The notes under the pieces were generated by a model that ran no database searches, had not been told where the DNA came from, and saw only the letters and a list, made by a program, of their open reading frames with translations. The position numbers were made by a program, and so were the translations under genes. Below, piece after piece: positions 30,718 to 63,624 of a DNA stretch of 64,000 nucleotides (positions are counted from its first letter, which is position 1; each line of letters opens with the position of its first letter). This DNA comes from Spirochaetia bacterium (GTDB lineage: Bacteria; Spirochaetota; Spirochaetia; DSM-2461). The stretch lies in contig CAXXIA010000002.1 of the NCBI GenBank assembly GCA_963666985.2, positions 1,792,001 to 1,856,000 on the forward strand, read 5' to 3'.

Positions 30718-30807
30718 GCAATTGCCCTGCCTCTTTTTTAAGAGGTAATAAATGGTGAAAAGCCGACATCCGTGTCGGCTAAGACAAAAATAAAAAGGAG
30801 ATACCAT

Positions 30808-33800
30808 TTGTCTAAAGTCAATCAAATAGAAAAGGCTATTAGAGAACTTGAGGGCGGCAAATTTCAGAAACTATGTGACTCTTTCATTACTGTTAAAGAA
30901 AATGTTGAAATAACAAGTGTTGGTAGCCACGTAGGGACTTATAAAACGGTTAAAGGTACTCCAGACTCATATTATACAAAAGAAAACGGTCAGTTTGTTT
31001 TCATTGAATATACAACAACACAAAAAAAAGATTTACTTGAAAAAATACTTGATGATATAAAAAAGTGTTTTGATATAAGCAAGACAGAAATTCCAAAAGA
31101 ACAAATCGATAGAATTATATATTGCCATATAGATAAACTTGAGGCTGCGGAAAAAAGAAAGGTAATAAAGCTTTGCCAAGAAAATGGTTGTGATTTTGTA
31201 AATTATGATGTTAGTTCTCTTTCTTTTGAGTTGGCTCATTCCTATCCGCAAGTTGCAAATGATGTATTAGGCATTTCGACAGATACTCAACAGGTCCTCA
31301 TACCAGAAAAGTTTATTGAAGAAAAATCAAGGACTATAACTCTCAAGAATAGTTTTTTTCACCGCGAAGATGAAAAGGAACAAATTAAGGCAGCCTTAGA
31401 AATTTATGACTTAATCGTTATTACAGGAGATGCTGGAACTGGAAAAACTAGGATTGCTCTTGAGCTAATATCTGAATATTTAAAAGAATATCCAAATTAT
31501 TTTTGTTGTTGTATTGAAAATAGATATGCTACTTTAGAAGATGATTTTCTAAATTTATATAATTCTCATGATAATATTCTATTATTACTCGATGACTCCA
31601 ATAGAATTGCACAATTGAGCATGATACTTAGTTTTGTCAATCAAAAGCCGCAAAAGCTGAAACTGATTCTTACAGTTAGAAATTATGCAATAAATACTGT
31701 AATAGAAGCTATACGAGATAAAACATTTAAAACAATAGATATAAAAAAATTCAATAGAGGACAAATCAAAGAATTAATTTCTGATGAAAGTATTGGTGTG
31801 AAAAATCCAGTATTTATTGATAGAATCTGTGATATATCAAAAGGTAATGCACGCCTAGCAATTATGGCTGCTTCTGTTGCTATTGATGAAAATAACTTAT
31901 CATCTTTATCAAACACAATTAATTTTTATGATAAGTTTTTTAAAGACCTAAACAGAATCTTTTTGGATAGAAGTAACGAAAACATTAAAAAGACTTTAGG
32001 AATTGTTGCCTATTTCCATATAATAGATAAAAATTTACCTCCAACTGATCTATACACAAATTTTGAAATTTCAGAAACGGACTTTTGGGATTCTATTTAT
32101 GAACTCTATAATTATGAAATAGTTGACTTATATGAAAATCAAGTTTGTAAAATCAATGATCAAATTATTGCTACTTATTATTTCTATAAAATAGTTTTCG
32201 ACGAGAAATTGTTGAAAGTGGAAAGCTTTTTGTTATATTACTTCCCCAAATATTCAGAAAGAATGAGGGAAGCTATATTTCCTTCAGCTAATACTTTTGA
32301 TTTTCAAAAAATATTAGATGTATTAAAGATCCCAGTTGAATCTCAATGGGATTTTCTACTTAAATCGGATGAATATGAGACCTTATACGAATTTGCAAAT
32401 ACTTTTTACTTTGTAATTCCAAATAAAGTTTTAATCTATATTAATAAGATAATCGACTCAATTGATGGCGATTCAGATAAATTGATTTTTGAAACGAATT
32501 ATCATGGTGTAAATGAAAAGCTATATGAACTTTTAAGAAAATTTGCAAGTTTTAATTCAGATAGCGTGAAAATCTCAATTCAGTTAGCATGTCGATATTT
32601 TTTGAAATGTAATTCCAAAGCTCACGATTTCTACGAGTATTCTGTATATAGTTTTGGGTTTAATCCAAGTATAATCCATTACTCTACAGATATTCAGAAA
32701 ACATTTTTTTATACTCTTTTCGATCAAGCAGAGAAAAATGATCTGCTTAATGATGTAATTGTAGTTATAGCACCACAATTCTTAAAAATGGATCATGAAA
32801 ATTCATATACAGAAGGGATGCAGTATACTATTTCATTCTTTGGGCTACCTTTTAATAGAATGGTTCAAGAATTACATGAAATTATACTTAACTATTTAAG
32901 TAGCTTATCTGTAGATAGATATATAATCTTTCTTGAAAGATATATAAGAAAAATGCGATCAATACATTTAAAAAATACCAAAGAATTGAAGAAAGCATTA
33001 TTATTTGACTCCGACTTTATTCTTGCCTTTGTTGAAAAAACATTCAATTTCGATGACTTAAAGTATAGTATCATTTTTAATAATTACAAAGATTTACTAG
33101 AGCTATATAAAGTCAGTAATAAAGATCTTGATTCTATTGCCGAAAAAGCATCTACAGAATTATATAAAGTGTATTTGACATTGAACATTGATAGAATTGA
33201 ACGTCGGGAACTTCGGTCCGAAGGTAAATCGTATCAAGAAATCGAAGAAATTCATAAAAATGAAATTGCGTCTGCTATAACTAATTATGAGCTTAAAGAT
33301 TTTAAAATTCTGTTTGAATACATTGAGAAAGAAATATTAAGAAATCCTGAGCAAAACAATTACTTTCTTTCATCATCTGCTGTTAAGATTTTAGAGATTC
33401 TAACAAAAAAGAAGAAACTATTTTTTGAGGTCATAGAATTTATTATGACTCAAGAGAATAATCTCAAAATCTCCTTCCATTCTATACCATATATTTTTAT
33501 TAAGGAAAATCCATCTAACCATCTAGAGTTATATAATTTAATTAAAGATAAGCAGTACTACAACAATCATCAATGGATATATAGCTTTTTCTCAGCACTA
33601 CCAGAATCACAAATTTCTGAGTTCTATTATAATGAATTTGAAACTTTTCTAAATAGTATAGTTGTAAACTGGAATATTTTTTTTGATTGTATTATCAAAT
33701 TTGACAATTTTAAAAAGGGATCATTTATAAAGTTTATGACATTACTATATGAAAACAGGTTAACCAATAATATTAGCTTCTCAATAATTCTAAACCCATA

Positions 33801-34548
33801 TTCAGACTATAGAAAAAATATTTTCTCCTTATTTGAAGAAGATGAAAGTTTATTTGAAAGTATATATCTTTATGAAATACAAAGAGATGCATCTGAAGAT
33901 CTTGATGGCTTCTTTATTAAACATTTTCTTATGAAGGATCCCAACTTCATTGTTAAATACTTGGATACCATTTATTCTAAAGATATTCATATTTCAGATT
34001 ATATAAGTCATTCTGATCTATCTAGTGTTTGGGAATTAGATAATTATTATGATATTATGGATATAGCAACTAATTTCATATTATCTAAAGACTCCTTTAT
34101 AATGGATAGTTGCTTTCTTAACGTCTTTTTTGAACCAAAGAATACTAATAATAAAAACATAGAGAATATAAAAAGTAAGCAAATCAATTTCTTAAATATG
34201 TATATAGAATCGAACTATACAAAATTCAAATCTATTAATTTAATATTTAAACCAATCAAAAAGTTCTTTTGGGATATAATGCCTGATTTTGCATTTTCTT
34301 TTTTGGAAAAATCGAACTCTATCGAAGCAATAAAATCAATAAGTTTTAACTATGAGATGTATTCTGGAGGAGATACATTTCTTCCAGTATTCAATAAAAT
34401 GCTTTCTTTTTGGGAAGAATTGCGTTTAAAGCTTGATGATCTTAAGTTTATTGAAATCAGAGAATTTGTCATTGAACAAATTGATAATTGGAGAGAACAA
34501 ATTTCAAGTGAGAAGAAAAAACAATTTATAGGACATTTATATTATTGA
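30808..34548 (+). CDS. PD-(D/E)XK-like nuclease fused to STAND NTPase with long helical C-terminus (Avs-like)
   Basis: FQKLCD, GTPDSY and IEYTT motifs; Walker A GDAGTGKT; LLLDD; LTVR; GNARLA; RBS AAGGAG before TTG 30808 (track start 30772). Confidence 0.8.
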   Translation: MSKVNQIEKAIRELEGGKFQKLCDSFITVKENVEITSVGSHVGTYKTVKGTPDSYYTKENGQFVFIEYTTTQKKDLLEKILDDIKKCFDISKTEIPKEQIDRIIYCHIDKLEAAEKRKVIKLCQENGCDFVNYDVSSLSFELAHSYPQVANDVLGISTDTQQVLIPEKFIEEKSRTITLKNSFFHREDEKEQIKAALEIYDLIVITGDAGTGKTRIALELISEYLKEYPNYFCCCIENRYATLEDDFLNLYNSHDNILLLLDDSNRIAQLSMILSFVNQKPQKLKLILTVRNYAINTVIEAIRDKTFKTIDIKKFNRGQIKELISDESIGVKNPVFIDRICDISKGNARLAIMAASVAIDENNLSSLSNTINFYDKFFKDLNRIFLDRSNENIKKTLGIVAYFHIIDKNLPPTDLYTNFEISETDFWDSIYELYNYEIVDLYENQVCKINDQIIATYYFYKIVFDEKLLKVESFLLYYFPKYSERMREAIFPSANTFDFQKILDVLKIPVESQWDFLLKSDEYETLYEFANTFYFVIPNKVLIYINKIIDSIDGDSDKLIFETNYHGVNEKLYELLRKFASFNSDSVKISIQLACRYFLKCNSKAHDFYEYSVYSFGFNPSIIHYSTDIQKTFFYTLFDQAEKNDLLNDVIVVIAPQFLKMDHENSYTEGMQYTISFFGLPFNRMVQELHEIILNYLSSLSVDRYIIFLERYIRKMRSIHLKNTKELKKALLFDSDFILAFVEKTFNFDDLKYSIIFNNYKDLLELYKVSNKDLDSIAEKASTELYKVYLTLNIDRIERRELRSEGKSYQEIEEIHKNEIASAITNYELKDFKILFEYIEKEILRNPEQNNYFLSSSAVKILEILTKKKKLFFEVIEFIMTQENNLKISFHSIPYIFIKENPSNHLELYNLIKDKQYYNNHQWIYSFFSALPESQISEFYYNEFETFLNSIVVNWNIFFDCIIKFDNFKKGSFIKFMTLLYENRLTNNISFSIILNPYSDYRKNIFSLFEEDESLFESIYLYEIQRDASEDLDGFFIKHFLMKDPNFIVKYLDTIYSKDIHISDYISHSDLSSVWELDNYYDIMDIATNFILSKDSFIMDSCFLNVFFEPKNTNNKNIENIKSKQINFLNMYIESNYTKFKSINLIFKPIKKFFWDIMPDFAFSFLEKSNSIEAIKSISFNYEMYSGGDTFLPVFNKMLSFWEELRLKLDDLKFIEIREFVIEQIDNWREQISSEKKKQFIGHLYY

Positions 34549-35100: not shown

Positions 35101-38100
35101 CTACATGAAATATCGAAAATCATATGCTTGATCATATATTGCTTCTTCCTGTTTTGCCATTCTGGAAAGGACTTTTGCAAAATCAAGTGTTACTGGCAAA
35201 GTTTTATATAAACTATCCCCGCTATTCCAGTTCATCTTGGATAGCATTAGGATCTCTTTTGCAAGAATATCACCAGATGCTTTACCATAGAATCTCTGTA
35301 TGATAAGGGGAACAGGTATTCCTCTTCCGCCTTTGTAATAATTTAATCTGCCTTTTAATTCATCTTGAATTACACATCCATGTGTCCATAAGAGGAAAGT
35401 GTCTGAAGTTAACGAAATCACCGTCCCTCTTTTAATTGCGAAATTTTCAGGGCCACTTTTGATATTGTTATTAAATCGGATTGCTCGCCACGAACAATAC
35501 TCTTGGATTTGAAGTAATTCTATATCATCGATTCCCTCTAAAGCCTGTGTAAATCCAGTAATTTCTTCACGAGTAAAAGGTGTTGTTTTATGAACAACAA
35601 TACGGTTTAGTTTGGCTGTTGGATCACATTTATAATATTGTTCCCGAAGAGAGCTCATCATGGCACGTGCTTCATCTTTCTTCATGAAAGGGTTTTTCCC
35701 AAAATAGCCCGGATCATCTATTTTTCGTAATAATAAACGTATTCCAGTACCTGTAGAGTCAAAAAGTTGACTACAGCCAATACAAATTCCTTTTGATTTT
35801 GATTGAGCATAACTAACACCAACAAACGCCGTTGAATCATTAAGGGTAACAGGTTGCCAAAGAGAACCGGAAGCTTTTGCATATAAACTTGTGGACAATC
35901 CCCAGCGGACTTTGCATGGGTCATAATATTTTATAGATTTATCCTCAATAAACTGAAGCTTTACAGATTTATCTGTTGCATATAATTTTAATGCGTCATG
36001 CAAATTGAAATCATCGTTAGGATCATCACTTTCACGAAATCCAGAAAAGATTGACGGTATATAAATGACAGCAATATCGAAGTTATGACAAGTTGATATT
36101 TTATCAATAAATGATTTCATCAGATCTAAGAAAGCAGCTATATTCAAGATTTTTGCTTTATCTTGATCGTATGTAATAACATAAGAGGTATCGTCTTCCG
36201 AAGGAATTAATATCCCTCGTTTATATACCTGTTCAAAGCCATTGAATAATTGCAGAAACCCATCTTTCTGATTCTTGGGAGAGTGCTTTTGATTGAGAGA
36301 ATTTAGGTGAGATAGTATTTTAGTAATTTGCTGTTTCGGTGAAATAATCAAAAGTTTAATGGAATCTCGTATTAATTTATCCTTTGAGTATGAGTAATCA
36401 ATTGGTCCAAATTTATTGATTCCGAGAAGTTGATTAATGGCTGTGTGTGTCTTATCTTTTACATCGAAAAGCATTTGTGGTTCATCAAATTGATATGCAT
36501 TCAACGATGGCCATTCAGGTTTTCTGTTTATTCCACCACAACTCATGAAAACACTAATAAAGTTTAGTGTAGATCTATTATAACTGAATGAAATAGTTTG
36601 CTCATTATTCTTTTTTAACTTCTTATTCCAGTATTTTAATTTTTCATCATACTGTTTGTTGTATATGCCAGACATTATTTTATTTATAATTTGTTGCTTT
36701 GTAAGTTTATCAACATCAGTTCCGTTAATATGTTGAAGAAAAACAGTTGGCACAATAGAAAGGTAATAATTTCCATTGTAGACTGATAAAGCAATTTCGA
36801 ATCCATCATTTACGTTGTAATTATTTTCATATACATCTTTTTTACTTGGATCATAATATTTATTTTTTCCAAAAGAGATTAATCCTAATTTATTTACAAG
36901 GTGAGTCTTTATTAGCTCATAAAGCATGCCTGTATAAATAGAATCATGTTTATATAATATTTTGTTTGGAATTACTTCTTCACTTATTTCGGATAAAATA
37001 TGCTTCTTGAATACATCTTGAATCCTTTCTTCAATACCGAAACAATAGATTCTGCTCGAAAAAAGGGCAGCGATTATATCATTCTCACCAATAACTTCTT
37101 TTAATTCCTTCCATGAAGTGATATCGGTATCAAAGACTTTGCACTGTGGAAGGCCCGTAGATAAAAATGTATTTGTTTTTATAAAAGAATCTATTTGCTG
37201 ATTGGAGAATGACAAAGGCATCTTTCTCTTAGGAAAATCTATCCAACGATCTTCTATTTGTGCATTAGGTTTATCCTGCATCTTATAGCATTGATACATA
37301 AACTCATCAAACCCAGGTATTTCAACGACACAAGATGATTCGGAGATTGTGCATGCGCTCTCCATTAAAGTAGAAACTCTATCTGATAGATCACTCCCTA
37401 TTGGAATCATCCATACAAGACCATATTTTAGGAAATCCTCTTCACCAATATGTTCTTCAATGACTTTCATAATTGATTCGTCACAACCGGAATAACCAAT
37501 AAAAACAAGACCTGTTCCATATAAACGGCTTTTAAATTGCATTTGCATAGAATTTTCAAGATCTTTCAGCTCAGTAGAAGTGTTTTTTATTTTGTCATAT
37601 CTATAATCCCCATGTAATTTAAAAATAGAAGGAAACGATCTATCAACACAATTTTGAATCCCGTCTTTATTTGCCGAACTAAAAACAGTAAAGCTATGTT
37701 CAGGGCGAATTGTTTTTATTCCGGATTCTATTAATTCATCAAAATTCGTTGTCCAAATGTTCTGTATCTTTTTACCTATAAACAGTTCGGCCAAGCATAA
37801 ATGACCTAATGACGGTGCGATATCTCTGACTTTATATTGTACAAATTGTTCCCTTGCTACGCTAGTTGTATGGCATAATTCAAAGTAGTGGGAATATTCA
37901 TTTGATTCATAAAGTGAGGGGTGTCTGCCTTGTGAATCAAAATATTTCTGCAATTTCAGCTGTGCTGTTTTTGATTGTAGGTCTCTGAATTCTTCTTTTG
38001 AAGTACCAGTTTCAGTACAATAAATATTTCGTTTGAATTCCCAGGTTAATCCACCACCTGTTGGTATTCCTGCTTGAGCTGATGAGCCTGAACCAAGAAA

Positions 38101-38172
38101 GATATCTATACACCCATCATTCATAACGTTGAAATTGCGTAAAAATGTAGGCATATCATTCTTTCTTATCAT
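35101..38172 (-). CDS. SIR2-APAZ-short prokaryotic Argonaute fusion (fused SPARSA type)
   Basis: SIR2 motifs GSGSS..AGIPTG, TTNFD, KLHGD and FIGYSG; C-terminal MID-PIWI (LYAKA, VVHKT, RGT, LSKMNWN, LPVTL); first catalytic Asp replaced (FVGVSY). Confidence 0.9.
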   Translation of the reverse strand: MIRKNDMPTFLRNFNVMNDGCIDIFLGSGSSAQAGIPTGGGLTWEFKRNIYCTETGTSKEEFRDLQSKTAQLKLQKYFDSQGRHPSLYESNEYSHYFELCHTTSVAREQFVQYKVRDIAPSLGHLCLAELFIGKKIQNIWTTNFDELIESGIKTIRPEHSFTVFSSANKDGIQNCVDRSFPSIFKLHGDYRYDKIKNTSTELKDLENSMQMQFKSRLYGTGLVFIGYSGCDESIMKVIEEHIGEEDFLKYGLVWMIPIGSDLSDRVSTLMESACTISESSCVVEIPGFDEFMYQCYKMQDKPNAQIEDRWIDFPKRKMPLSFSNQQIDSFIKTNTFLSTGLPQCKVFDTDITSWKELKEVIGENDIIAALFSSRIYCFGIEERIQDVFKKHILSEISEEVIPNKILYKHDSIYTGMLYELIKTHLVNKLGLISFGKNKYYDPSKKDVYENNYNVNDGFEIALSVYNGNYYLSIVPTVFLQHINGTDVDKLTKQQIINKIMSGIYNKQYDEKLKYWNKKLKKNNEQTISFSYNRSTLNFISVFMSCGGINRKPEWPSLNAYQFDEPQMLFDVKDKTHTAINQLLGINKFGPIDYSYSKDKLIRDSIKLLIISPKQQITKILSHLNSLNQKHSPKNQKDGFLQLFNGFEQVYKRGILIPSEDDTSYVITYDQDKAKILNIAAFLDLMKSFIDKISTCHNFDIAVIYIPSIFSGFRESDDPNDDFNLHDALKLYATDKSVKLQFIEDKSIKYYDPCKVRWGLSTSLYAKASGSLWQPVTLNDSTAFVGVSYAQSKSKGICIGCSQLFDSTGTGIRLLLRKIDDPGYFGKNPFMKKDEARAMMSSLREQYYKCDPTAKLNRIVVHKTTPFTREEITGFTQALEGIDDIELLQIQEYCSWRAIRFNNNIKSGPENFAIKRGTVISLTSDTFLLWTHGCVIQDELKGRLNYYKGGRGIPVPLIIQRFYGKASGDILAKEILMLSKMNWNSGDSLYKTLPVTLDFAKVLSRMAKQEEAIYDQAYDFRYFM

Positions 38173-44564: not shown

Positions 44565-44697
44565 GTCCTTAGCAAGAAGCCTCGGCTTCATTCGGTTGGT
44601 GTATAGCCGACCTGAGCGAATTGTTAGATATCTTCGCAAGAAGAGTCCTTTTATTGAGAATAAAAGGACTCTTCTTCCTCATGCCCTTAGTAAGGAC
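44565..44697 (+). ncRNA. Retron msr-msd RNA
   Basis: Terminal IR GTCCTTA/TAAGGAC; putative branching G at 44572 in TTAG context; two small msr stems; perfect 18-bp msd stem at 44638-44676. Confidence 0.82.
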
Positions 44698-44701
44698 TTT
44701 T

Positions 44702-45625
44702 ATGAATTGGAAGAATAATCCCAATTACCTAATAGCCAAAAGGGATTTTACGTTAGCGTTTTCCACGCGATTGTTAACAAATCTATACTATTCAATGCCA
44801 AAAATTGTTTTTATTTGTGGTGGCAAGCCGACAAATTTCGTTAATCGCGAGAAGATCGAGAGATACTTTGAAAAAAATCTAGAGAGATTCTTAACCTTCC
44901 GCGCTGAGAATGCCTGGAATGTAATACAGGAAAATTTAAGAGGTACAAATGCACTAGAATTGGAAGAATGGTTAGCAGATTTTTCAGATGTTGTAATTAT
45001 ACTAGTCGAGAGCTTTGGGACAGTTGCAGAGCTTGGCGCTTTCTCTATGAATTCAATACTAAGAAAAAAGGTTCTTCCAATTTTAGATACAAAATATGAA
45101 GGAGATGATTCTTTTATAAATACTGGACCAATAAAGTGGATCGATAAAGAGTCCAAATATTCTCCTTCGATATATGTTGATTTTAGTCTGATTTTGACGT
45201 GCATGGACGAGGTTGAACAAAGAATATCAAAGCGATATTGGGAGTATCACAACGTATCCAGGACCTATGGAAAATATGGATATACCAAAAAAGTTCTTCT
45301 CTATTTCTTTATTTATGTTTTGGCCTCATTAGGGCCGATTGACATTGATGAGATAGTTGAAATAACAAATAATCTTATCTCGTATCAAGATAAGAAAAAT
45401 ATTCAGTTTATCGTATCTATCGGTGTAGCCCTAAAGATTTTTCAAAAACGTAGTGTAATGGGCAATGTGTACTATACCTGCTCAAACTATCGGAAGCTTT
45501 TCTCAAGTCCAATCACTAAAGACCACCTGAAAAGGATTCAAAATATTCGAGCGAGAAATTTATCGTCACTACTGAAAATTAAGGACTTTGTAAAAGTTAT
45601 GGACTCGGCGAATGTCAATAGTTGA
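44702..45625 (+). CDS. Retron type II-A effector (St85/RcaT-like NDT-fold plus wHTH)
   Basis: IVFICGG, RAE, LEEWLADFSD and LVESFGTVAELGAF motifs; AAGGA RBS before ATG 44702. Confidence 0.85.
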   Translation: MNWKNNPNYLIAKRDFTLAFSTRLLTNLYYSMPKIVFICGGKPTNFVNREKIERYFEKNLERFLTFRAENAWNVIQENLRGTNALELEEWLADFSDVVIILVESFGTVAELGAFSMNSILRKKVLPILDTKYEGDDSFINTGPIKWIDKESKYSPSIYVDFSLILTCMDEVEQRISKRYWEYHNVSRTYGKYGYTKKVLLYFFIYVLASLGPIDIDEIVEITNNLISYQDKKNIQFIVSIGVALKIFQKRSVMGNVYYTCSNYRKLFSSPITKDHLKRIQNIRARNLSSLLKIKDFVKVMDSANVNS

Positions 45626-46538
45626 ATTAATTTCGAAACAAATGTTACTAGAGGAAGATTATCTCCTCACAATATCAAAAAGTTCGTCTGCAAGATACAA
45701 ACGTTTCACTATTAAAAAACGGAATGGCGGTGATCGAGTAATTTACCAACCTTCAAAAGAATTGAAATCAATTCAAAGAGTTCTTCTCGATATGTTTTTG
45801 TCTAAACTTCCTATTCACTCTTATGCATATGCATACAAGAGTGGAACAACCACAAGAGATTGTCTTCAAAATCATTCGGAGAACAAATATTTTCTTAAAC
45901 TTGATATGCAAGACTTTTTTTACAGTATAACAAATAGCGATCTCGACAAATACTTTAAAGATATTAGGAGGGAAGACATTATACACCTCTCATCTTGTGA
46001 TATAACTTTTATCAAAGATATTTGTTGTTTTAACAAAAGACTTGTAATCGGAGCCGTTACATCTCCAACATTATCAAATGCAGTTTGTTTTAATCTAGAT
46101 CAAAAGATATCACTACTCTGTGAAAGTCTGGAGGTTGAATATAGTAGATATGCCGATGATTTAATTTTTTCCACAATGAAAAGAAATGCGTTATCAAAGC
46201 TTCCTATTCAGATTGAAGCTTTACTAAAGAAAATTTCTTATCCAAGCGCGTTACGTTTGAATCATAACAAAACTCGATATTATTCGCATAATAATGCAGT
46301 AAAGATATTAGGTCTTAAAATTACTAACACCGCAGAAATTTCGATTGGCCGACAAAAAAAACGCGAAATTAGAAGTAAAGTGTACAAGTGGAATCACCTC
46401 AATCCCGATGAAAAAAAGCATCTTCAAGGATTTTTGGCTTATTGCAGAAGTGTAGATCCGGTCTTCATTGATGAGTTGTGTCTAAAATATAAAGCAGAGC
46501 GAATTAACGATATAATCCATTATAGTGGAAAAGGCTAA
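45612..46538 (+). CDS. Retron reverse transcriptase
   Basis: KKRNGGDRVIYQP, KLDMQDFF, GAVTSPTLSN, YSRYADD and ILGL motifs. Confidence 0.92.
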   Translation: MSIVELISKQMLLEEDYLLTISKSSSARYKRFTIKKRNGGDRVIYQPSKELKSIQRVLLDMFLSKLPIHSYAYAYKSGTTTRDCLQNHSENKYFLKLDMQDFFYSITNSDLDKYFKDIRREDIIHLSSCDITFIKDICCFNKRLVIGAVTSPTLSNAVCFNLDQKISLLCESLEVEYSRYADDLIFSTMKRNALSKLPIQIEALLKKISYPSALRLNHNKTRYYSHNNAVKILGLKITNTAEISIGRQKKREIRSKVYKWNHLNPDEKKHLQGFLAYCRSVDPVFIDELCLKYKAERINDIIHYSGKG

Positions 46539-48209: not shown

Positions 48210-49154
48210 ATGGAAGAAAAAAAGCATCGAGGAACAATCTCTATAAAAAATTTGATGTTATTTTTAGTAGTATTCATTCTAGGACTCGTTACTAATCAAA
48301 TTATATCACAAGTTCTTAGCGGTGAGGTAACTACTTTTACCACTTTAGATCTTATAAATTTTGTTGTAACAATATTGCTTTCAGCGGCATCTATTGTTTT
48401 AGCTGTCACTTCTATTTTGCTGGGAAAAACTGCTGAAGAAGAATTAAATCGAAAGACTACTGAGAGCATTCGTCTTCAAAACGAGGTTTTTATGCGAACG
48501 AATGAAGTTTTAAATAGAATTGAATCTTCCACTGGCGTAACAGAAAAGAGGATAGAAGATATAATTTCAGGTCGAGTTGGAGACATTTCAAGCAGAATTG
48601 CACACATTGCTACAAGTAGGAGTAATAAGTCAAAAAAAGAGATTGAGAATGAAGTTAAACAATCAATTGTCAGTGGTCTGAAAAAGGATAATGAAAAGAC
48701 TGAAGAGGAAAGGGCGATTGAGAAGATTGAGAAGGAAAGAGTAGAGAGATATAAAAATTTTCATCAGTTAATTTTGAGAGCATTTGCAAATCGAGATGAT
48801 ACCTATGTAATAAAAACGTTACACGGAAGTTTTCAATCAGAGAGTGAAGGATTGTTTGATGGTGTGTACAAGGTTGGGGATAAAATTATTGGTGTAAGTG
48901 CAATGCTGATTGAATTAGAAAGACCAGAAACTATATCAGAATACATAATGAAAATTGCTAAAGAAATTATAAACGGGGAAACTAGTCAGGTCTATTTATT
49001 TCTTTACGATGCAAAGGAAGAAGCTTTTACAGAATACTATAAAAAAGAACTAGAAATACTAAAAGGCAATCCCAGCGAAAGAATTCATTTTTATTCTAGT
49101 AATTGCGATCAGGTTGAAAGTCTGATAAGTAAACTTGAAATAGCAAAAGTATAA
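48210..49154 (+). CDS. Hypothetical protein: 2 N-terminal TM helices, coiled coil, alpha/beta C-terminal domain
   Basis: 314-aa ORF with RBS GAGG, fills the cassette. Confidence 0.8.
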   Translation: MEEKKHRGTISIKNLMLFLVVFILGLVTNQIISQVLSGEVTTFTTLDLINFVVTILLSAASIVLAVTSILLGKTAEEELNRKTTESIRLQNEVFMRTNEVLNRIESSTGVTEKRIEDIISGRVGDISSRIAHIATSRSNKSKKEIENEVKQSIVSGLKKDNEKTEEERAIEKIEKERVERYKNFHQLILRAFANRDDTYVIKTLHGSFQSESEGLFDGVYKVGDKIIGVSAMLIELERPETISEYIMKIAKEIINGETSQVYLFLYDAKEEAFTEYYKKELEILKGNPSERIHFYSSNCDQVESLISKLEIAKV

Positions 49155-49410: not shown

Positions 49411-50397
49411 TTAGTCTACAGAGTAAGAAAGAAGGCCACTAGCTAAATCTGCCAGATAGATAAAGTTTCCATCACCCCAAACTCCATAGGCTGAATTGCA
49501 TTGGTCGTCGGAATCAATAAATTTCAGGTTACCCGAAGAATCAGCTTTATAGGAGAGAAGGCCACCGAAGTTATTTGCCAGATAGAGGTAGTCTCCATCA
49601 CCCCAAACTTCCATGGCGTTACCGCCCTGGTCGTCGGAATCGATAAATTCCAAGTTACCCGAAGAATCAACCTTATAGGAGAGAAGGCCACTACGGCTAT
49701 TTGCCAGATAGATGAATTCTCCATCACTCCAAACGCCATAGGCGTAACCGCCTTGATCGTCGGAATCGATAAATTCCAGGTTACCAGAAGAATCAACCTT
49801 ATAGGAGAGAAGGCCACTGCTGTAATTTGCCAGATAGATAAAGTCACCATCACCCCAAACGCCCCAGGCTGAACCGCCTTGGTCGTCAGAATCGATAAAT
49901 TCCAGGTTACCAGAAGAATCCACCATATAAGAGAGGAGACCACTATCGCTATTTGCCAAATAGATGAAGTCACCATCACCCCAAACTCCCACTGCATGAC
50001 CGCCTTGGTCGTCAGAATCGATAAATTCCAAGTTACCTGATGAATCTACATTATAGGAGAGTAGGCCACTTTCACCATCTGCCAGATAGATGTAATCTCC
50101 ATCACCCCAAACTTCAACGGCGGTTCCGCCCTTATCATCGGAATCAATAAATTCTAGATTGCCTGACGAATCTACCTTATAGGAGAGAAGGCCAATTGGG
50201 CCATTTGCAAGATAGATGAAGTCTCCATCACCCCAAACTCCATAGCCAATACCGCCTATGTCGTTGGAATCGATGAAGGTTAGATAACCTGATTTCTCGT
50301 TGTCTACATCGGATGATGGATTGCTACATCCTGCAGCGAAAATAATAAGTACCACAGAAAGAATAACATAAAAGATTTTATGTAAGGGTTGTTTCAT
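49411..50397 (-). CDS. LVIVD-like repeat beta-propeller lipoprotein
   Basis: Lipobox AAG-C; seven 42-aa repeats (GVWGDGDFIYLA...GLLSY.VDSSGNLEFIDSDD). Confidence 0.82.
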   Translation of the reverse strand: MKQPLHKIFYVILSVVLIIFAAGCSNPSSDVDNEKSGYLTFIDSNDIGGIGYGVWGDGDFIYLANGPIGLLSYKVDSSGNLEFIDSDDKGGTAVEVWGDGDYIYLADGESGLLSYNVDSSGNLEFIDSDDQGGHAVGVWGDGDFIYLANSDSGLLSYMVDSSGNLEFIDSDDQGGSAWGVWGDGDFIYLANYSSGLLSYKVDSSGNLEFIDSDDQGGYAYGVWSDGEFIYLANSRSGLLSYKVDSSGNLEFIDSDDQGGNAMEVWGDGDYLYLANNFGGLLSYKADSSGNLKFIDSDDQCNSAYGVWGDGNFIYLADLASGLLSYSVD

Positions 50398-50657
50398 TAC
50401 CCCCTCCATTAACACAGATTAACCCTTAAGGAAATATAAATATATCTAATTATATATGTTGCAATAACGAACATTAACACACCCCTATGAAATAAAACAA
50501 GAGTATTGTCGATAAGGCCTTTATAGGGATAAAAAACGCGTATACGCCGATGGTCTTCCTAAAGAATTATCATCGCTTTTCATCTATATTATATGGAAAT
50601 CAAGAAGCTTTTAGTTTTAGGGCAAAACGATAAGAGGACGTTCAGATCGGAAACTTC

Positions 50658-50867
50658 GCCAAACAGCTGTTGATGCGCTCCGAATACATTTGCATGCAAA
50701 TGTATTCTCCGGGGCTTCGCCCAAATTTGCCTCTGTTACAGATTTTGCGAGAGGCTGCGACCGTGGTAAGATGAGTTGCAGTATGCGGATGAGGTTGTGA
50801 AGAATCGCAAAATCTCCGCCAGTCGCTACGCGAACGGCAAACTTCGCATACCAGCGGCCCGTTTAAT
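50658..50867 (+). repeat. attC site 29
   Basis: Conserved attC arms. Confidence 0.9.
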
Positions 50868-50933
50868 GAAAAAGCCAGAAGGCATTTCACCGCCTCGGCA
50901 TCCATGCCTCGGCGAGTAGATTGAATTAGGAGT

Positions 50934-51206
50934 ATGAAAACTATGAATGTAAGAGACATTCTCATTGTCAAAAAAGCAAAGAAAATAGAGAACTTCGATC
51001 CTATTGTCCTTGGAACACAGACGCTCACCAATGTGAGCAAAGAACAAACTGATAAGGATGCTAGTTCCCATAACGGATTTGAGTTAGGTACACAAACTAG
51101 AACATTTACTCAAGAAGAAATGACAGACAGTGATACAGACAGAATACAACTTGGTACTCAGACTGTGACGAAACATATGGCTGAGGGTACAGACGAAGAT
51201 CGATGA
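50934..51206 (+). CDS. Graspetide (ATP-grasp RiPP) precursor with three cores
   Basis: Three copies of LGTQTxTxxxxExTDxD after a leader; start may be ATG 50943. Confidence 0.85.
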   Translation: MKTMNVRDILIVKKAKKIENFDPIVLGTQTLTNVSKEQTDKDASSHNGFELGTQTRTFTQEEMTDSDTDRIQLGTQTVTKHMAEGTDEDR

Positions 51207-52150
51207 TTCTTCTAGTTACAAATACCGAAGATAAAACAGCTGACTACCTAGAGAGAAATACAAAGAATTCCTTCTTACGTTTCAATACTGAGAAATTTCT
51301 GACAGAGTATAAACTCTCGTATTCGAACAGTGGATTCGAACTACAACATGTCTTATCAGGGAAAATTGTCACAAATCAGAATTTAAAAGGAGTGATCTAT
51401 CGTAGACCAACTTATCCTGACGTGTCAGCTGATGACGGATCCACGAAGCTTCAAGAAGAATTGAGGAATGAAGCTCGAATAATATACGAATCAATACTAG
51501 GTAGTATTGATACAAGATGGATCAGTGAACCATATAGCGTGAGGAAAGCAGAAAATAAACTACTACAACTCAAGTATGCAAGAAATGTAGGTCTTTCAAC
51601 ACCAAAAACAATTGTGTCAAATGATAAAAACCAGGTAGAGGAGTTTTTACGAACGGCAAATTCAAGGTTGTGCATTAAGCCTATGCATCTTGGCATATTC
51701 GAGATAAAAGACGAAATCTACATACCATACAATACAATAATTTCTTATGAAGATATTTCTGCAGTTGATAACTATCCAACCTTGATACAAGAATATGTCG
51801 AAAAACAATATGAAGTTAGGGTGGTTATAATCGGAGAAGCCGTTTTTTCTATCAGAATAGATTCTCAAAAGAATGCTGATACGAAATTTGACTGGAGAAC
51901 AAATAACTGTATGGCTGTTGAATACTCAATTACAGAAATACCTTTTGAAATAGAGAATAAATGTAAGCAGTTAATGAGTGAATTTAATGTAAATTTCGCT
52001 TCAATGGATCTTGCCATCAATGAGAACGGAGAATATGTGTTTCTAGACTTGAACCCTAACGGTCAATGGGCTTGGCTAGACGAATTATTGAATTTAAACA
52101 TGACTAACGCCTTCATCGATTTTTTCGACAAAGGAGATAAATATGTTTGA
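51203..52150 (+). CDS. MvdC/MvdD-type ATP-grasp peptide macrocyclase
   Basis: AENKLLQL, PKTIVSN, QEYVEK.YEVRV, IDSQ, DWR and FLDLNPNGQWAWL motifs. Confidence 0.9.
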   Translation: MILLVTNTEDKTADYLERNTKNSFLRFNTEKFLTEYKLSYSNSGFELQHVLSGKIVTNQNLKGVIYRRPTYPDVSADDGSTKLQEELRNEARIIYESILGSIDTRWISEPYSVRKAENKLLQLKYARNVGLSTPKTIVSNDKNQVEEFLRTANSRLCIKPMHLGIFEIKDEIYIPYNTIISYEDISAVDNYPTLIQEYVEKQYEVRVVIIGEAVFSIRIDSQKNADTKFDWRTNNCMAVEYSITEIPFEIENKCKQLMSEFNVNFASMDLAINENGEYVFLDLNPNGQWAWLDELLNLNMTNAFIDFFDKGDKYV

Positions 52151-52676
52151 TCCAGTTCATATCTTGGAAGAAAAAAATAATAGCACCCTAAGTCGATATG
52201 AATCATTTTACTCAAAGCAAAATTCCATTTTCACTTTAATGACGCTACTTGTTACGGTTTTTCTTTTTCTTGCCGGCGAACATTTTCCAGCTGTCAATTC
52301 TTTGTTTACAGTTACTGATAACACTTGTTTCGAAATGGTACTAGCCGTATCTATTACAATTACATTTGTTGTTGTACTTATTTTCTTCTTCAATTTGCTA
52401 TTTCAAATTCTCTCCGGACTCAAGCCAATTGTTTTCTCTGAATTGGACTATGAAGCTATCGATGAATTCAACAAAGGCAAAGAAGAGAAGGCATATAAGA
52501 TATTGATAAAAGACATGAAGAATGTGATTGATAGTAACCAGGAGGCAATAAACGAGAAATATAATGTTTTTCTAAAAGTGAAGTCCAATTTTACAATATT
52601 TCTCTTCGTATATATGTTTTTGGTTGTTCTTGTCTTTGTCGCGACTTTTTATGCAGGAATTAATGCTGGCAGCTGA
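52143..52676 (+). CDS. 3-TM membrane protein (Pycsar PycTM/DUF5706-like architecture)
   Basis: K-TM1-TM2-P, soluble loop, N....K, TM3 layout; overlaps ligase stop. Confidence 0.6.
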   Translation: MFDPVHILEEKNNSTLSRYESFYSKQNSIFTLMTLLVTVFLFLAGEHFPAVNSLFTVTDNTCFEMVLAVSITITFVVVLIFFFNLLFQILSGLKPIVFSELDYEAIDEFNKGKEEKAYKILIKDMKNVIDSNQEAINEKYNVFLKVKSNFTIFLFVYMFLVVLVFVATFYAGINAGS

Positions 52677-52747
52677 CTATCTCATTAGCATCTGAAGCAC
52701 ATCGTGTGCTTCAGATGAATTTATGAAGTTTTTTAGCTGGCTTCGTC

Positions 52748-52961
52748 ATTAAACAGCTGTTGATGCGCTCCGGCGATAATCGGGGATTATCGCCTCCGGG
52801 GCTCCGCCCAAATTTCGTTTTGTCATGGCTCTTGCAGATGCAGTTCCGTAAGTGATGTGATACAGTCAAAGAAGAACATGGTGTTGCTGTAGAAGAGCAA
52901 GAGCACATGCCAACCGGCTTTGCCGGACACGAAACGTTCGCATAACAGCGGGCCGTTAAAT
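52748..52961 (+). repeat. attC site 30
   Basis: Conserved attC arms. Confidence 0.9.
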
Positions 52962-53615: not shown

Positions 53616-54293
53616 ATGCCGCAAAAGGCATGGATTTTCGTAAAATTTGGCCAGAGGAAATATTTAGAGGAAATTCAAAAAGGAATTTTGTATATGAACT
53701 CTTGGCAATATTTTAAATATTTAGAGAATGAAGCTCAGAAAGATATTTATGAAGGTTCTTTGATTTGGTTAAATCCAAGTATTAGCACTATTAAAATCGG
53801 CGATCGAGTTCTTACAAGAGAAAATGGTACTTTATGTGCTTCTCTCTCTTTTCCAATGGAATCAATAAAAATATTTTGTATGAGTGTTATTTGTAGAGGC
53901 GATCAGATTCGTTCGGATTTTAAAATATTCGACGATAGAATGAGGAATTTTGGGGATAGTTTTCTAGTAATCTATAATGCAAATAGATTTCTTAAAAGAG
54001 TTGATAAAGCATTGGAAATAAATTTGAAAAAAGAGATCTTTGTTTCAGCTGATTATGGAAAAGTTGAATATTTCAAACCGAATGAATATGATGGAGATGT
54101 TGGACCTTTTAGGAAAATTGATTATTATAAATATCAAAAAGAATTTCGTATAGTTATTTGTAAATCATCAAAAAAGCCATTTAAATTATCAGTGGGATCA
54201 CTAGAAGATATTTCTATTTTAGATTCTGTCTCAAATTTTATAAATGTGGTAAAACAAAAACGGGATTTATCAGGATTTAATTTGTTATTTTAG
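53616..54293 (+). CDS. Hypothetical protein, possibly DUF2971-related
   Basis: ATG 53616; IFCMS, FG, VEY and FRK..Y.YQKEFRI motifs. Confidence 0.65.
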   Translation: MPQKAWIFVKFGQRKYLEEIQKGILYMNSWQYFKYLENEAQKDIYEGSLIWLNPSISTIKIGDRVLTRENGTLCASLSFPMESIKIFCMSVICRGDQIRSDFKIFDDRMRNFGDSFLVIYNANRFLKRVDKALEINLKKEIFVSADYGKVEYFKPNEYDGDVGPFRKIDYYKYQKEFRIVICKSSKKPFKLSVGSLEDISILDSVSNFINVVKQKRDLSGFNLLF

Positions 54294-59987: not shown

Positions 59988-62219
59988 TTAATTCCGTACA
60001 CGTGCTCTATCTGAAATTCTTAGATCACTTCTATTCCATCCAAGAGAATTCATTTCCTTTACCATCTCATTAAATATAGGTATGTTTTTTTCATGATCTC
60101 TTACACTAACTAATAAAGCAAACTTTTGAGGCTCTAATTGCATATTATGTGTTTCAAATCTTCTCTGAAGATTCAACTTCAGCCTCCAGATGTCACCACT
60201 ACACCCCCGAGGAAAAATTCTTCTATATACTTTCACTGGGGACCATTTAAATCCGTGTTCGATTTGTTCTGATTCATATAATTTATTGATATCTTTAGGA
60301 TCAATTGGAACTTTCTTTGAATGTTTTCCATTTTTAAAAATTCCTAATGAGACTTCAATATTTGATCGGCAATACTCTGCTAGAAATGACGAGTCAGTAG
60401 GTGGTGAATATACCAAAGTCATTAATAATTCTCCATGGAACTTACCGTCAGCTCGTAATGATTCGGGTAGAGGAAAAGGTTGGCGGCTAAATTCTAAAGA
60501 ATCATATAATTCTCCCTCAAAAATCATAGTGCAAGTAAATGGATCACCAGTTAAGAATTTAATTGGTTCAAGCGGTTTTCCAAAACCATAGTATTTTACT
60601 TCTTCTGCAGTTCGTATTGGTGAATCTAGTACCGCACTATGAATGACCAAAGCCTTTATTAATTCTTTTGAAATATCACCAGATATTAATTTTGTGTACT
60701 GTGAAGCTATACTTGAAACTATAGGTGTAGAGAAACTAGTCCCAATATTTTCAGAATGCTTTGAGTCTGCAGAAACCGAAAGAACACCTGTTTGAGAATA
60801 GTTACCATTTTTATCACAATTTCCACCATAATGAATAATTTCTGGTTTTGGAATGAAACTCGGTCCGGGGCCTCTTCTAGAAAAAGGGGAAGGCTCTTCA
60901 TTTCGAACTAAAGTAATTGGTGTAAATTTATGTGTTATTGAACCAACAGATAACGCCCGAGATGAATCACCAGGTGTAGAAATTCTATCATCAATACTTA
61001 TATCACTAGGTGGCCAGTTTCGGAGAGGTATATTTGTGTAATTACCTGCTGATATTACAAATAATACATTATAAGTATCTTGTAATTCATCAAAATAACT
61101 TGCTAGTGAAGAATATGAGAACGAATCAGTAGGCGTTGAGGCTCCTAAAGAAAGATTCCAAATACGTACATAAGGAAATGATTTTATAGAATCTTCAATG
61201 GTCTCTTTGAGATCCTCTTCTGAAATTCCATTTTTGGGAGATAAAGCGCGGATGTCAATGATTTTAGCATGTACATTAGGGAAACGTGGATCGGAGTGGT
61301 TTAAACTATGATTATTAGCTATTAATCCTCCGACAAAAGAACCATGCTCAAAATCCGTTTCTTTATCTATAATCCTTTTTTTCCTAGCAACAACCCAATC
61401 CGATAGAGCTTTATTGTCATCATGAATACCTGTATCAATAATTCCAACTATTGGGTAATCGACTGATTTATCAGGTTTTGGAAAGAGTTGCTCATGCAAA
61501 TCTCCAATTGTTATATTAGTCGTTTTTAATGTTTCATATTGAGGGAACAAAGACACAGTTCTAACAGGAGGGAAAATGCATAATTTTGGAATTGTTTGAT
61601 TGTCATTAATTTCTGCCTTATATACAATTTGGTTTTTCCCATAGTTAATTTTTTTATATTTTAGAATGCCAATTTCTTCAAATACAGATAATAAACATTT
61701 ATTAATTTTATTATTTAACTCAGTATCCTTAAAATCGAATAAACTAATTTTTATCTCTCTGAAATTTTCAATAGAAATACTTGAATCAATACGATCAAAT
61801 TGAGAATAATCTAAAAAGCTTTCAAGTGATGAGATATTTGCGATATTTTCTTTTGTAGTCCCTTCCTCTATAATTCTATTCAGTTTTTCAAGACCGATCT
61901 CATTTACTCTTATTAGAAGCTTTCCAAATCCATAATCACCAATAATTGGACATGTAGAGTTATTTAATAGCGATGATGGACGATGACTTTTTGCAATAGC
62001 CTCTTTCTTTAATTCAACTCGTGCAATATTAGGTATGTTTGGCCATTTATGAAATGTTTTTTTATATTTCTGGTTAATGCTTGAAATTTGATTTGAATAT
62101 AATGAGCGCAATGACGGTGTAACATTTGAAAAAACTTTTTTAGGACCGCCAGATGAATAGGGCTTATGGTGATCTCGTTCAGAAATCGTAATTACCTGAA
62201 GGGGATATTCATCTGACAT
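59988..62219 (-). CDS. ietS: S8 subtilisin-like protease (IetS-like)
   Basis: Catalytic triad IIDTG, HGSFV and GTSFSTP; NLSLG; SAGN; KPE. Confidence 0.85.
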   Translation of the reverse strand: MSDEYPLQVITISERDHHKPYSSGGPKKVFSNVTPSLRSLYSNQISSINQKYKKTFHKWPNIPNIARVELKKEAIAKSHRPSSLLNNSTCPIIGDYGFGKLLIRVNEIGLEKLNRIIEEGTTKENIANISSLESFLDYSQFDRIDSSISIENFREIKISLFDFKDTELNNKINKCLLSVFEEIGILKYKKINYGKNQIVYKAEINDNQTIPKLCIFPPVRTVSLFPQYETLKTTNITIGDLHEQLFPKPDKSVDYPIVGIIDTGIHDDNKALSDWVVARKKRIIDKETDFEHGSFVGGLIANNHSLNHSDPRFPNVHAKIIDIRALSPKNGISEEDLKETIEDSIKSFPYVRIWNLSLGASTPTDSFSYSSLASYFDELQDTYNVLFVISAGNYTNIPLRNWPPSDISIDDRISTPGDSSRALSVGSITHKFTPITLVRNEEPSPFSRRGPGPSFIPKPEIIHYGGNCDKNGNYSQTGVLSVSADSKHSENIGTSFSTPIVSSIASQYTKLISGDISKELIKALVIHSAVLDSPIRTAEEVKYYGFGKPLEPIKFLTGDPFTCTMIFEGELYDSLEFSRQPFPLPESLRADGKFHGELLMTLVYSPPTDSSFLAEYCRSNIEVSLGIFKNGKHSKKVPIDPKDINKLYESEQIEHGFKWSPVKVYRRIFPRGCSGDIWRLKLNLQRRFETHNMQLEPQKFALLVSVRDHEKNIPIFNEMVKEMNSLGWNRSDLRISDRARVRN

Positions 62220-62229
62220 AATAATGCTC

Positions 62230-63321
62230 CTATTTTAATAGATTTGATATTTTCCCAACTGAATAATTAAATATCTCACTAATTACTTCATAAGTAAAAT
62301 ATTTGGGGTTAACAGCTCTAAGATGCTTAATAACTGAAATCTCACTAGTATCAATTTGATTGTTGGAAGCCTTAAATAAATCTATGATTGTGTCGCGTAA
62401 ATTGATTTTCTCATAATTATTTACAATTTTATTTCTAATATTATTCTCAATAATATTTTTAATCTCCGATCCGGATAATCCATCTGACGCAATCGAAAGA
62501 AGGATATTATTTTTTTCATCAATAAATCCGTGAGAATATTTGTTTATTATTTTACTTCTAGTTTCGTCATTTGGTAATGTAATATTTAATTTAAAGTTAA
62601 ATCTTCTCCAGACAGCGGGATCAAGTAAATGTTCATGATTTGTCGCTGCTAATAGAATAGTATACGAATCCAAAGCATCGATATTTTGTAATAAACTAAC
62701 TACAACCCTTTTTAATTCACCTAATTCGTTGTGATCATCCCTGACTTTAGCAAGAGAATCGAACTCATCTAGAAAAAGAATGCAAGGACGTGAGTTAACA
62801 TATTCAAATAATTGTCTAATATTTTTAGCAGTACTTCCTAAATATGAAGAAATTAGTGTATCACTTCTGGATACTATGAGCGGTAATTTTAGTTGGGAAG
62901 CGATATAGTGTGCTAATTCAGTTTTACCACACCCTGGAGGGCCATATATTAGCATTGACGGTGAAATACCAACACCATCTTTAAGAAGTTGATCTGATGC
63001 TTTTACATATTTTATAAAATTTTGTATGTCTATTGTAATATGATCGTCTAAATACACCTCAACATTTTGTGTGAAATATTTCTCATCAGCTAATGAGGAT
63101 TTTGATTCTTGATCTATTGGAATAGGTTTAATACTAAGATCTTGGGTAAATAAATTATTGGTTTTGATATTGTTTATTTTATTAATAATTCGCGTAGATG
63201 ACCCTGTATCACCTTGAATAGCTAAATTTTCTGAAAGTAATTTACTATATGATATGATTTTATCTTTATCTAATTGAAGACCGCCTTCAATTATCTTTAG
63301 AACTTCTGATAAATATTGCAT
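62230..63321 (-). CDS. ietA: AAA+ ATPase (IetA-like)
   Basis: GPPGCGKT, FLDEFDS, ELGELKRVV and LDPAVWRRF motifs; ATG 63321 with GAGGGA RBS. Confidence 0.85.
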   Translation of the reverse strand: MQYLSEVLKIIEGGLQLDKDKIISYSKLLSENLAIQGDTGSSTRIINKINNIKTNNLFTQDLSIKPIPIDQESKSSLADEKYFTQNVEVYLDDHITIDIQNFIKYVKASDQLLKDGVGISPSMLIYGPPGCGKTELAHYIASQLKLPLIVSRSDTLISSYLGSTAKNIRQLFEYVNSRPCILFLDEFDSLAKVRDDHNELGELKRVVVSLLQNIDALDSYTILLAATNHEHLLDPAVWRRFNFKLNITLPNDETRSKIINKYSHGFIDEKNNILLSIASDGLSGSEIKNIIENNIRNKIVNNYEKINLRDTIIDLFKASNNQIDTSEISVIKHLRAVNPKYFTYEVISEIFNYSVGKISNLLK

Positions 63322-63624
63322 TATTCCCTCTTGTGAAAATATATACCAATTCGTGAAAAAATGCAATATATAATGAAAATGTATCATAATATGTGAAAAA
63401 AATAAGCTATATATGAAATATCCTTCTCGATATAACATTATAGATTATCTACTTTGTCGGTAATTCGTAAAATCTGTATAAATTATACAAAAATGTCTTT
63501 TAAGCAGCATAGCAAGTATAAATTATGTAGAAAACATTAAAAGAATTAACGTTTACATTAGTCCATCAGAATCATGTCCTGTGATTCTGATGGTGTTTTT
63601 ATTGGCTCTTTTCTGGATTTCATC

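Follow-up and report, generated by a model that had tools for sequence, protein, structure and literature searches.

A graspetide operon with a remote PycTM relative in a spirochaetal integron cassette: a possible peptide-gated anti-phage module

The biological role of graspetides is an open question, and it is raised in compact form by a self-contained unit of 1.9 kb that encodes a graspetide precursor, an ATP-grasp ligase and a small membrane protein: what is such a peptide doing on mobile DNA beside a membrane protein? The unit lies in a stretch of 64,000 nucleotides, hereafter the window, from a Spirochaetia bacterium (GenBank assembly GCA_963666985.2, contig CAXXIA010000002.1, positions 1,792,001 to 1,856,000). 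The reading set out here is that of an anti-phage module whose membrane effector, remotely related to PycTM, is gated by a ring-closed peptide inside the cell, and it is held tentatively, at slightly less than an even chance, while a defence role taken on its own is judged fairly probable. The defence reading is drawn from the co-conservation of the genes, the kinship to PycTM, the defence genes nearby, the absence of an exporter, the occurrence as cargo of viruses and of the array, and a peptide slot beside the membrane protein. The features of the unit, in window coordinates, are listed below.

50655..50868, + strand: upstream attC-type repeat of about 210 bp, whose last bases form the core site that opens the cassette (crossover 50862/50863)
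50934..51206, + strand: graspetide precursor, 90 aa as called, with a short leader and three cores
51009..51059, + strand: core 1 (residues 26-42)
51084..51134, + strand: core 2 (residues 51-67)
51150..51200, + strand: core 3 (residues 73-89)
51203..52150, + strand: MvdD-like ATP-grasp ligase, 315 aa, with Asp282 in place of Glu in the ExN motif
52143..52676, + strand: 177-aa three-helix membrane protein, by sequence a remote PycTM relative, with conserved R18, K25, N132, N137 and K139
52747..52960, + strand: downstream attC-type repeat, whose inverse core (52747-52753) closes the cassette

A sequence-only reading of the window had described three overlapping genes filling one cassette, and the positions of the open reading frames (ORFs) and of the flanking core sites bear this out: the precursor overlaps the ligase gene by 4 nt and the ligase gene overlaps the membrane gene by 8 nt. 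The cassette limits given there are also correct, the core site at 50862 being the exact reverse complement of the closing inverse core. The same relationship between opening core and closing inverse core is observed in 49 of 65 successive pairs along the array, against 3 of 65 for same-site pairing. The repeat of about 210 bp is spread over about 155 kb of the contig, with 66 sites located by motif search, and the bottom strand of the downstream copy folds with a z of -4.97 (200 shuffles). At the head of the array stands a tyrosine recombinase (E 5.5e-41), oriented away from it. With complementary attC cores across the cassette and an integrase at the array head, the graspetide unit is a genuine integron gene cassette. 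Inside it, the ORF list contains no exporter or protease, as had been claimed, and promoter signals do not rise above background (6 found, 7.4 expected from shuffles).

The three cores quoted in that reading are present in the precursor and share one register, TxTxTxxxxExxDxD, each carrying three Thr and three acidic residues; the register is common to an alignment with 18 relatives, in which the inner residues are variable. Translation probably starts at ATG 50943, giving 87 aa, because this codon sits 10 nt behind an AGGAG, whereas ATG 50934 sits only 1 nt behind it, and the later start agrees with those of the closest relatives. The ligase deserves its MvdD-like label, as it matches Pfam ATPgraspMvdD above the cut-off (E 1.2e-6); solved graspetide ligases of the MdnB/C type are matched at a best E of 1.8e-31, and NCBIfam ribosomal-peptide maturases at a best E of 2.7e-57, all below their cut-offs (TIGR04187, 194 bits against 350). 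All catalytic motifs are found, namely the K in KxxQL, KP, QEY, DWR and D...ExN, the last with Asp for Glu; among 78 genome ligases the first residue of ExN is Glu in 73 and Asp in 1, and it is Asp in 3 of 80 metagenome matches. By analogy with known graspetide chemistry, the ligase would close Thr-to-Asp/Glu ester rings in the precursor cores. Two other identities were considered and rejected: the microviridin type, given the single ligase, the different cores and scores below the TIGR04184/5 cut-offs, and chance ORFs, given that the genes are conserved in relatives.

The third gene is the one on which the functional question turns. The sequence-only reading had likened its product, by pattern alone, to the PycTM/DUF5706 cell-death effectors. 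The three transmembrane helices of the 177-aa protein are confirmed by hydrophobic stretches at about 27-46, 61-91 and 148-170 and by a structure model (predicted local distance difference test, pLDDT, 92), an all-helical three-helix bundle with long extramembrane extensions and helices at 2-56, 62-92, 104-110 and 114-176. The resemblance to PycTM can be raised from a pattern judgement to remote homology, although it does not extend to membership of Pfam PycTM. At E<=0.05, three PADLOC PycTM models match 15, 10 and 8 of the 55 family members; the best E is 1.1e-6, and no other model comes near. A profile-profile comparison of the family with 8 Pfam PycTM proteins, three of which adjoin cyclase-like genes, gives a probability of 88.6 and an E of 2.7e-6, over a match of 44 columns, a short span that tempers the result. 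Five of five weak hits of the family profile, chosen for their long matches, are Pfam PycTM above the cut-off; the other weak hits, outside these five, cover single helices. Additionally, 8 of 30 hits of a language-model search fall in one set (score 0.92), a cluster in which 10% of members carry PycTM, and the model of a cyclase-linked PycTM shows the same order of helical elements as the window protein. On these sequence comparisons, the membrane protein is a remote relative of PycTM and belongs to a sister family outside Pfam PycTM.

Of the two kinds of comparison that the sequence-only reading had proposed for 52143-52676, the profile-based kind thus furnished the link, whereas fold comparison returned only generic helical bundles: Foldseek of the model against the PDB gave nothing specific, VIA-align gave a best Z of 11.8 to bundles of the same generic sort, and viral models likewise gave nothing specific. 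The family profile, run against the sequences of solved structures, found only designed repeats and unrelated membrane helices, and a single-sequence search with the membrane protein matched itself only; its relatives were gathered through the neighbourhoods of ligase homologues. The best conserved residues, R18 (52 of 55 members), K25, N132, N137 and K139, all lie outside the membrane and probably face the cytoplasm, because they are located on the side that carries the positive charges. The C-terminal extensions of 9 long family members contain no Pfam domain at 1e-8 and therefore no fused effector.

How firmly is this membrane protein attached to the ligase? The co-conservation on which the sequence-only reading had staked its case holds up: one membrane-protein family adjoins the ligase in 66 of 80 loci from named genomes, of which 54 had been used to build the family profile and 12 had not, and, among 80 metagenome loci, none of them in the profile, it is present in 65 of the 68 with at least 550 nt downstream. 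The 14 genome loci lacking it comprise 9 actinobacterial loci of another graspetide branch, 4 of a Patescibacteria type and 1 at a contig end. Pairwise identities of ligases and membrane proteins co-vary over 54 loci (rho 0.61, permutation p 0.001), a result that demonstrates joint inheritance but not contact. The window protein diverges from the other members (9-18% identity); nevertheless, when the 35,917 reading frames of the genome are ranked by a profile built without it, it comes first (E 2.8e-4, the runner-up having 0.21), and it can be aligned directly with its counterparts in loci L225 and L237 (28% identity). Together with L001, L225/L226 and L237, the window's unit forms a compact sub-branch with a short leader of about 24-27 aa that lacks the PxIxxY/F motif, a DxN ligase, and a short membrane protein without the 40-aa N-terminal extension and the C-terminal tail.

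The unit is found in Bacteroidota, Bacillota, Pseudomonadota, Nitrospirota, Spirochaetota and others, and a ligase tree made by a quick method places members of different phyla side by side, with the window's ligase on a long unsupported branch. Among 10 viral contigs, 5 have the trio as cargo, in one case beside a baseplate-J gene, and an annotated phage has it too; one viral-contig copy sits between genes that we take to be a repressor and a late-control gene. The ligase occurs in 8 plasmid records, and the trio is seen in the one plasmid opened. Two further variants were noted in this survey. Four Patescibacteria-type ligase loci (L014, L070, L078, L080) have no membrane gene, and a TPR-like ORF stands behind that of L078. 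In L058, L062, L066 and L105, a four-helix form of the membrane protein goes with precursors that have a single core and end in an acidic run of the DDDPD type plus Cys-Tyr; L105 has two such precursors.

As gene sets, units of this kind have been catalogued before as thuringinin-branch graspetide clusters (Makarova et al. 2022, PMC8939145; statements on this and the other papers cited refer to the parts of them covered here). In that work, core types 3, 5 and 6 are grouped in precursor cluster 13, whose printed alignment includes the precursors of L069 and L016, the latter with the core register of the window (group 6), and 198 uncharacterised membrane proteins specific to thuringinin loci form cluster 18. 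The window membrane protein fits cluster 18 by description and context, with no matching rows in Additional files 9 and 10. Shared with the thuringinin branch are the multi-core Thr...Glu-x-x-Asp-x-Asp precursor, the single ATP-grasp ligase, the uncharacterised membrane protein and the lack of a known transporter; the leader without PxIxxY/F, a trait held in common with L001, L225 and L237, makes the window's unit a variant, and the DxN ligase, the short membrane protein and the integron cassette form also set it apart. The word "defense" is absent from the main text of Makarova et al. The 2026 survey PMC13097080 does not discuss the membrane partner in the parts covered, and no link between graspetides and PycTM appears in those of PMC13069673, PMC11118758 and bioRxiv 10.64898/2026.08.04.741601. 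A literature search, with subscription papers largely outside it and defence-prediction supplements not searched, found no report of an anti-phage role or a PycTM link for these clusters. What is new here is the PycTM kinship, the controlled defence enrichment, the peptide slot and the compact integron form.

For cluster 18, Makarova et al. proposed a role in transport (PMC8939145). In that alternative, the membrane protein acts as an exporter dedicated to the peptide or as a scaffold for its maturation, the cores leave the cell after ring closure to serve as protease inhibitors or signals, and the location in islands reflects mobility only. In favour of this, the protein occurs at loci that lack known transporters, it is always accompanied by a peptide, as expected of a dedicated exporter, and characterised graspetides inhibit proteases (PMC8939145). 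However, its nearest known family is an effector, its three helices come without an ATPase, and no catalytic Cys, His or Ser is found among the conserved columns. No transporter or immunity family, a match that the sequence-only reading had allowed for, came up in the Pfam and NCBIfam scans, and no transporter family is consistent across the 55 members (best MFS_1, in 2 of 55).

The neighbourhoods add to this. On each side of 65 of the 66 loci, the nearest two ORFs with a length of 110 aa or more were collected, making 234 genes, among which there is no ABC exporter, C39 peptidase or HlyD gene and one MFS gene (L058). The lack of a leader peptidase among these 234 genes, and of an outer-membrane channel gene near loci that are mostly Gram-negative, also speaks against export, which is therefore considered unlikely. 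Small membrane proteins encoded behind bacteriocin genes are often immunity proteins, and this counts for a related alternative, in which the membrane protein confers immunity against a toxic secreted graspetide. That alternative is highly improbable, since no export route is found among the neighbours, the conserved residues face the predicted cytoplasm, and no immunity family is matched.

The same set of neighbours bears directly on the defence reading. The control consisted of four central ORFs at fixed positions elsewhere on the same contigs (143 genes, 37 of 40 regions). The PADLOC count (E<=1e-30) covered the first 150 of the 234 neighbours and recognised 19 of them as defence genes, against 2 of 143 controls (p 1.5e-4), corresponding to 14 of 41 loci against 2 of 37 control regions (p 1.8e-3); these p-values overstate the case because the loci are related and not independent. 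Leaving out one group II intron enzyme gives 18 genes and 13 loci. A Pfam-based count, with a domain list drawn up after the hits were seen and with toxin-antitoxin domains excluded, yields 28 of 234 genes (21 of 65 loci) against 3 of 143 (2 of 37 regions). The enrichment in defence islands that the sequence-only reading had suggested looking for is thus present against a matched control. By hand count, 115 of 234 neighbours have no Pfam match, compared with 35 of 143 controls.

This enrichment would equally be expected if the peptide itself were the anti-phage weapon, inhibiting a phage protease or assembly protein inside the cell, with the membrane protein as a tether or scaffold for ligase and peptide. 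Several cores per precursor with variable inner residues suit a binder of varied targets, and protease inhibition is the known activity of the class (PMC8939145). Such a weapon leaves two things unexplained, the PycTM kinship and the pairs of membrane protein and plain peptide without a ligase that are described next, and we regard it as rather less likely still than export.

Searches of 401, 301 and 301 genomes from three phyla with the family profile returned graspetide loci and, in addition, relatives of the membrane protein that have no ligase. In total, 6,303 clusters at 50% identity match the profile, including these ligase-less relatives and some PycTM proteins. Among 20 ligase-less loci with a long match, left after setting aside two PycTM-like loci and one at a contig end, 10 have a small polar ORF after the membrane gene according to a filter (ATG start, 25-95 aa, polar, at least 2 Pro, near the stop of the membrane gene) that was set after the test loci had been seen, and by eye about 16 have one if alternative start codons and fused tails are allowed. 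Applied elsewhere, the same filter accepts 8 of 253 control genes, 3 of 207 island neighbours and, for the membrane genes of graspetide loci, 0 of 62. The ORFs, of 33-72 aa, polar and often proline-rich, stand behind or are fused to the membrane gene in L106, L107, L109, L111, L112, L170, L174-L177, L180 and L192-L196; L175 has three in succession, and L174 has one that is internally repeated.

The pair of ligase-less membrane protein and small ORF looks like an undescribed two-gene module, and, given the small ORFs behind ligase-less relatives, the membrane protein appears to need a peptide partner. We infer a basic module of two parts, the membrane protein and a small peptide; in graspetide loci, the precursor would replace the peptide and the ligase would be an add-on. 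Such a slot fits a gated effector and also a dedicated exporter.

Several observations weigh against the reading as a gated defence effector. In the membrane protein, the window member taken alone reaches only E 0.0023 against a fourth PADLOC PycTM model, it has no match to Pfam PycTM at E<=1, the 25 families listed for the 55 members do not include Pfam PycTM, and the aromatic motif that PycTM has in the loop between helices 2 and 3 is not conserved. Pfam PycTM genes also stand alone amid housekeeping genes at 15 loci (L081-L095), and cell death is therefore not implied by the fold. The loci show no effector swap: the slot holds this family, or the locus belongs to another graspetide branch. 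Control genes were taken at random positions of the same genomes rather than from other mobile cargo, and enrichment in islands is common to mobile cargo in general; integrases, transposases or recombinases were counted by hand at 11 of 65 loci and 0 of 37 control regions. At 44 of 65 loci no recognised defence gene is found among the nearest neighbours, and some loci (L022, L068, L237 and a plasmid copy) lie between housekeeping genes. As a side observation on PycTM itself, L198-L201, L203, L206 and L216, with L081-L095, carry Pfam PycTM genes without a cyclase, standalone or fused behind a domain that we presume, from its sequence, to be HD-like.

A further alternative is without any anti-phage effect; in it, a membrane toxin or receptor and a peptide form a selfish module, similar to toxin-antitoxin pairs or signalling from element to element, that stabilises cassettes, prophages and islands. 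The unit is patchy, mobile and AT-rich (35% G+C in the cassette, 51% in the genome); its ligase was not found in 60 relatives (E<=1e-20; 13 of the same genus, several genomes incomplete); addiction cassettes are abundant in integron arrays, and the loci are enriched beside integrases. Against this, a three-gene antitoxin that consumes ATP is costly for plain addiction, and defence systems proper are enriched even with toxin-antitoxin domains excluded. The selfish module is accordingly rated improbable, a little below the peptide weapon.

The array around the cassette had been described as defence-rich, and a domain scan of its ORFs agrees, covering 77 of 105 listed ORFs (the others are shadow frames, genes outside the array, or had been scanned already). 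Cassettes of defence type encode nSTAND3, Schlafen, Cap12-TIR, SIR2, NACHT, SoFic, DpnII with its methylase, an N6 methylase, TIR plus caspase, an S8 protease plus AAA, and a retron reverse transcriptase; the array is also described as holding Thoeris-like, STAND and restriction cassettes. Non-defence cassettes are present too, of the toxin-antitoxin, acetyltransferase, methyltransferase and lipoprotein kinds, and they count against the defence reading. Integrons have been described as stores of compact defence systems (bioRxiv 10.1101/2024.07.02.601686).

The array itself is a chromosomal super-integron, extending from a 277-aa integrase (G000:C2:1777133-1777966, - strand) to about 1934000, with unusually long attC sites of about 210 bp; it is heavily invaded by insertion sequences, and several cassettes are duplicated. 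Further cassettes observed in it are listed here, in window coordinates unless a locus is named.

3084-5372, - strand: nSTAND3 protein
25089-26309: Cap12-type TIR protein
35101-38172, - strand: SIR2 protein
44621-46538: 334-aa gene that overlaps, and shares one cassette with, a retron reverse transcriptase of the St85 family (NCBIfam, above cut-off)
49411-50415, - strand: lipoprotein with LVIVD/beta-propeller repeats in tandem, reversed in orientation and immediately upstream of the graspetide cassette
59988-63438, - strand: AAA plus S8 protease
L220:6437-7806: ThsB-TIR plus caspase
12870-14684, 30772-34548, 48210-49154, 53617-54293 and L218:16634-19018: large or medium cassette genes with no Pfam match at 1e-8, candidates for unknown defence genes

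Comparison with known defence systems indicates what the peptide-gated module would and would not resemble. As in Pycsar, a small enzyme gene is paired with an inner-membrane protein that has three helices and is related in its sequence and in the order of its helices, and both occur in integrons and islands; in two genomes of the window's class, cyclase plus PycTM pairs stand directly beside integron-type integrases (L096, L097). Pycsar proper is rejected, however, as no pyrimidine cyclase is found in the cassette or among the 234 neighbours; a peptide ligase is the partner here, the aromatic loop motif is not kept, and the window protein has no Pfam PycTM match. PycTM disrupts the inner membrane, and Panoptes acts through the loss of a repressor (both PMC13712596). 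With Panoptes (OptS/OptE) and similar decoy-guard systems, the likeness drawn is one of proposed logic only, that of a constitutive small product keeping a membrane effector shut; the ligand there is a cyclic nucleotide. Anti-phage lanthipeptide clusters are likewise clusters for ribosomally made, post-translationally modified peptides (RiPPs) with an anti-phage role, differing in chemistry and in genes. We know of no PycTM-like partner for those clusters.

In the mechanism that we propose for the gated module, the peptide would remain in the cytoplasm as the gate of the membrane protein, whose action in an infected cell would be to breach the inner membrane. The contact between peptide and membrane protein, and the sign of control, are suppositions on our part, with repression mildly preferred to activation: the effector would be kept shut by a constitutive peptide and set free once infection led to the capture, cleavage or loss of that peptide, graspetides being protease-binding peptides. 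This would follow the Panoptes logic, with a peptide in place of the nucleotide. Ring closure should stabilise the peptide, a property ill-suited to a labile antitoxin, which counts against the reading.

A broader proposition, which we put forward as speculative and regard as doubtful, is that thuringinin-branch graspetides are not secreted natural products and instead act as the signal or decoy of a widespread immune system. In such a system, a PycTM-like effector would be under the control of a small peptide, either plain and proline-rich (two genes) or macrocyclised by an ATP-grasp ligase (three genes), with the peptide replacing the cyclic nucleotides of Pycsar and Panoptes. If this is true, a large branch of RiPPs would gain an intracellular immune role, and a peptide-gated effector would join the nucleotide-gated ones.

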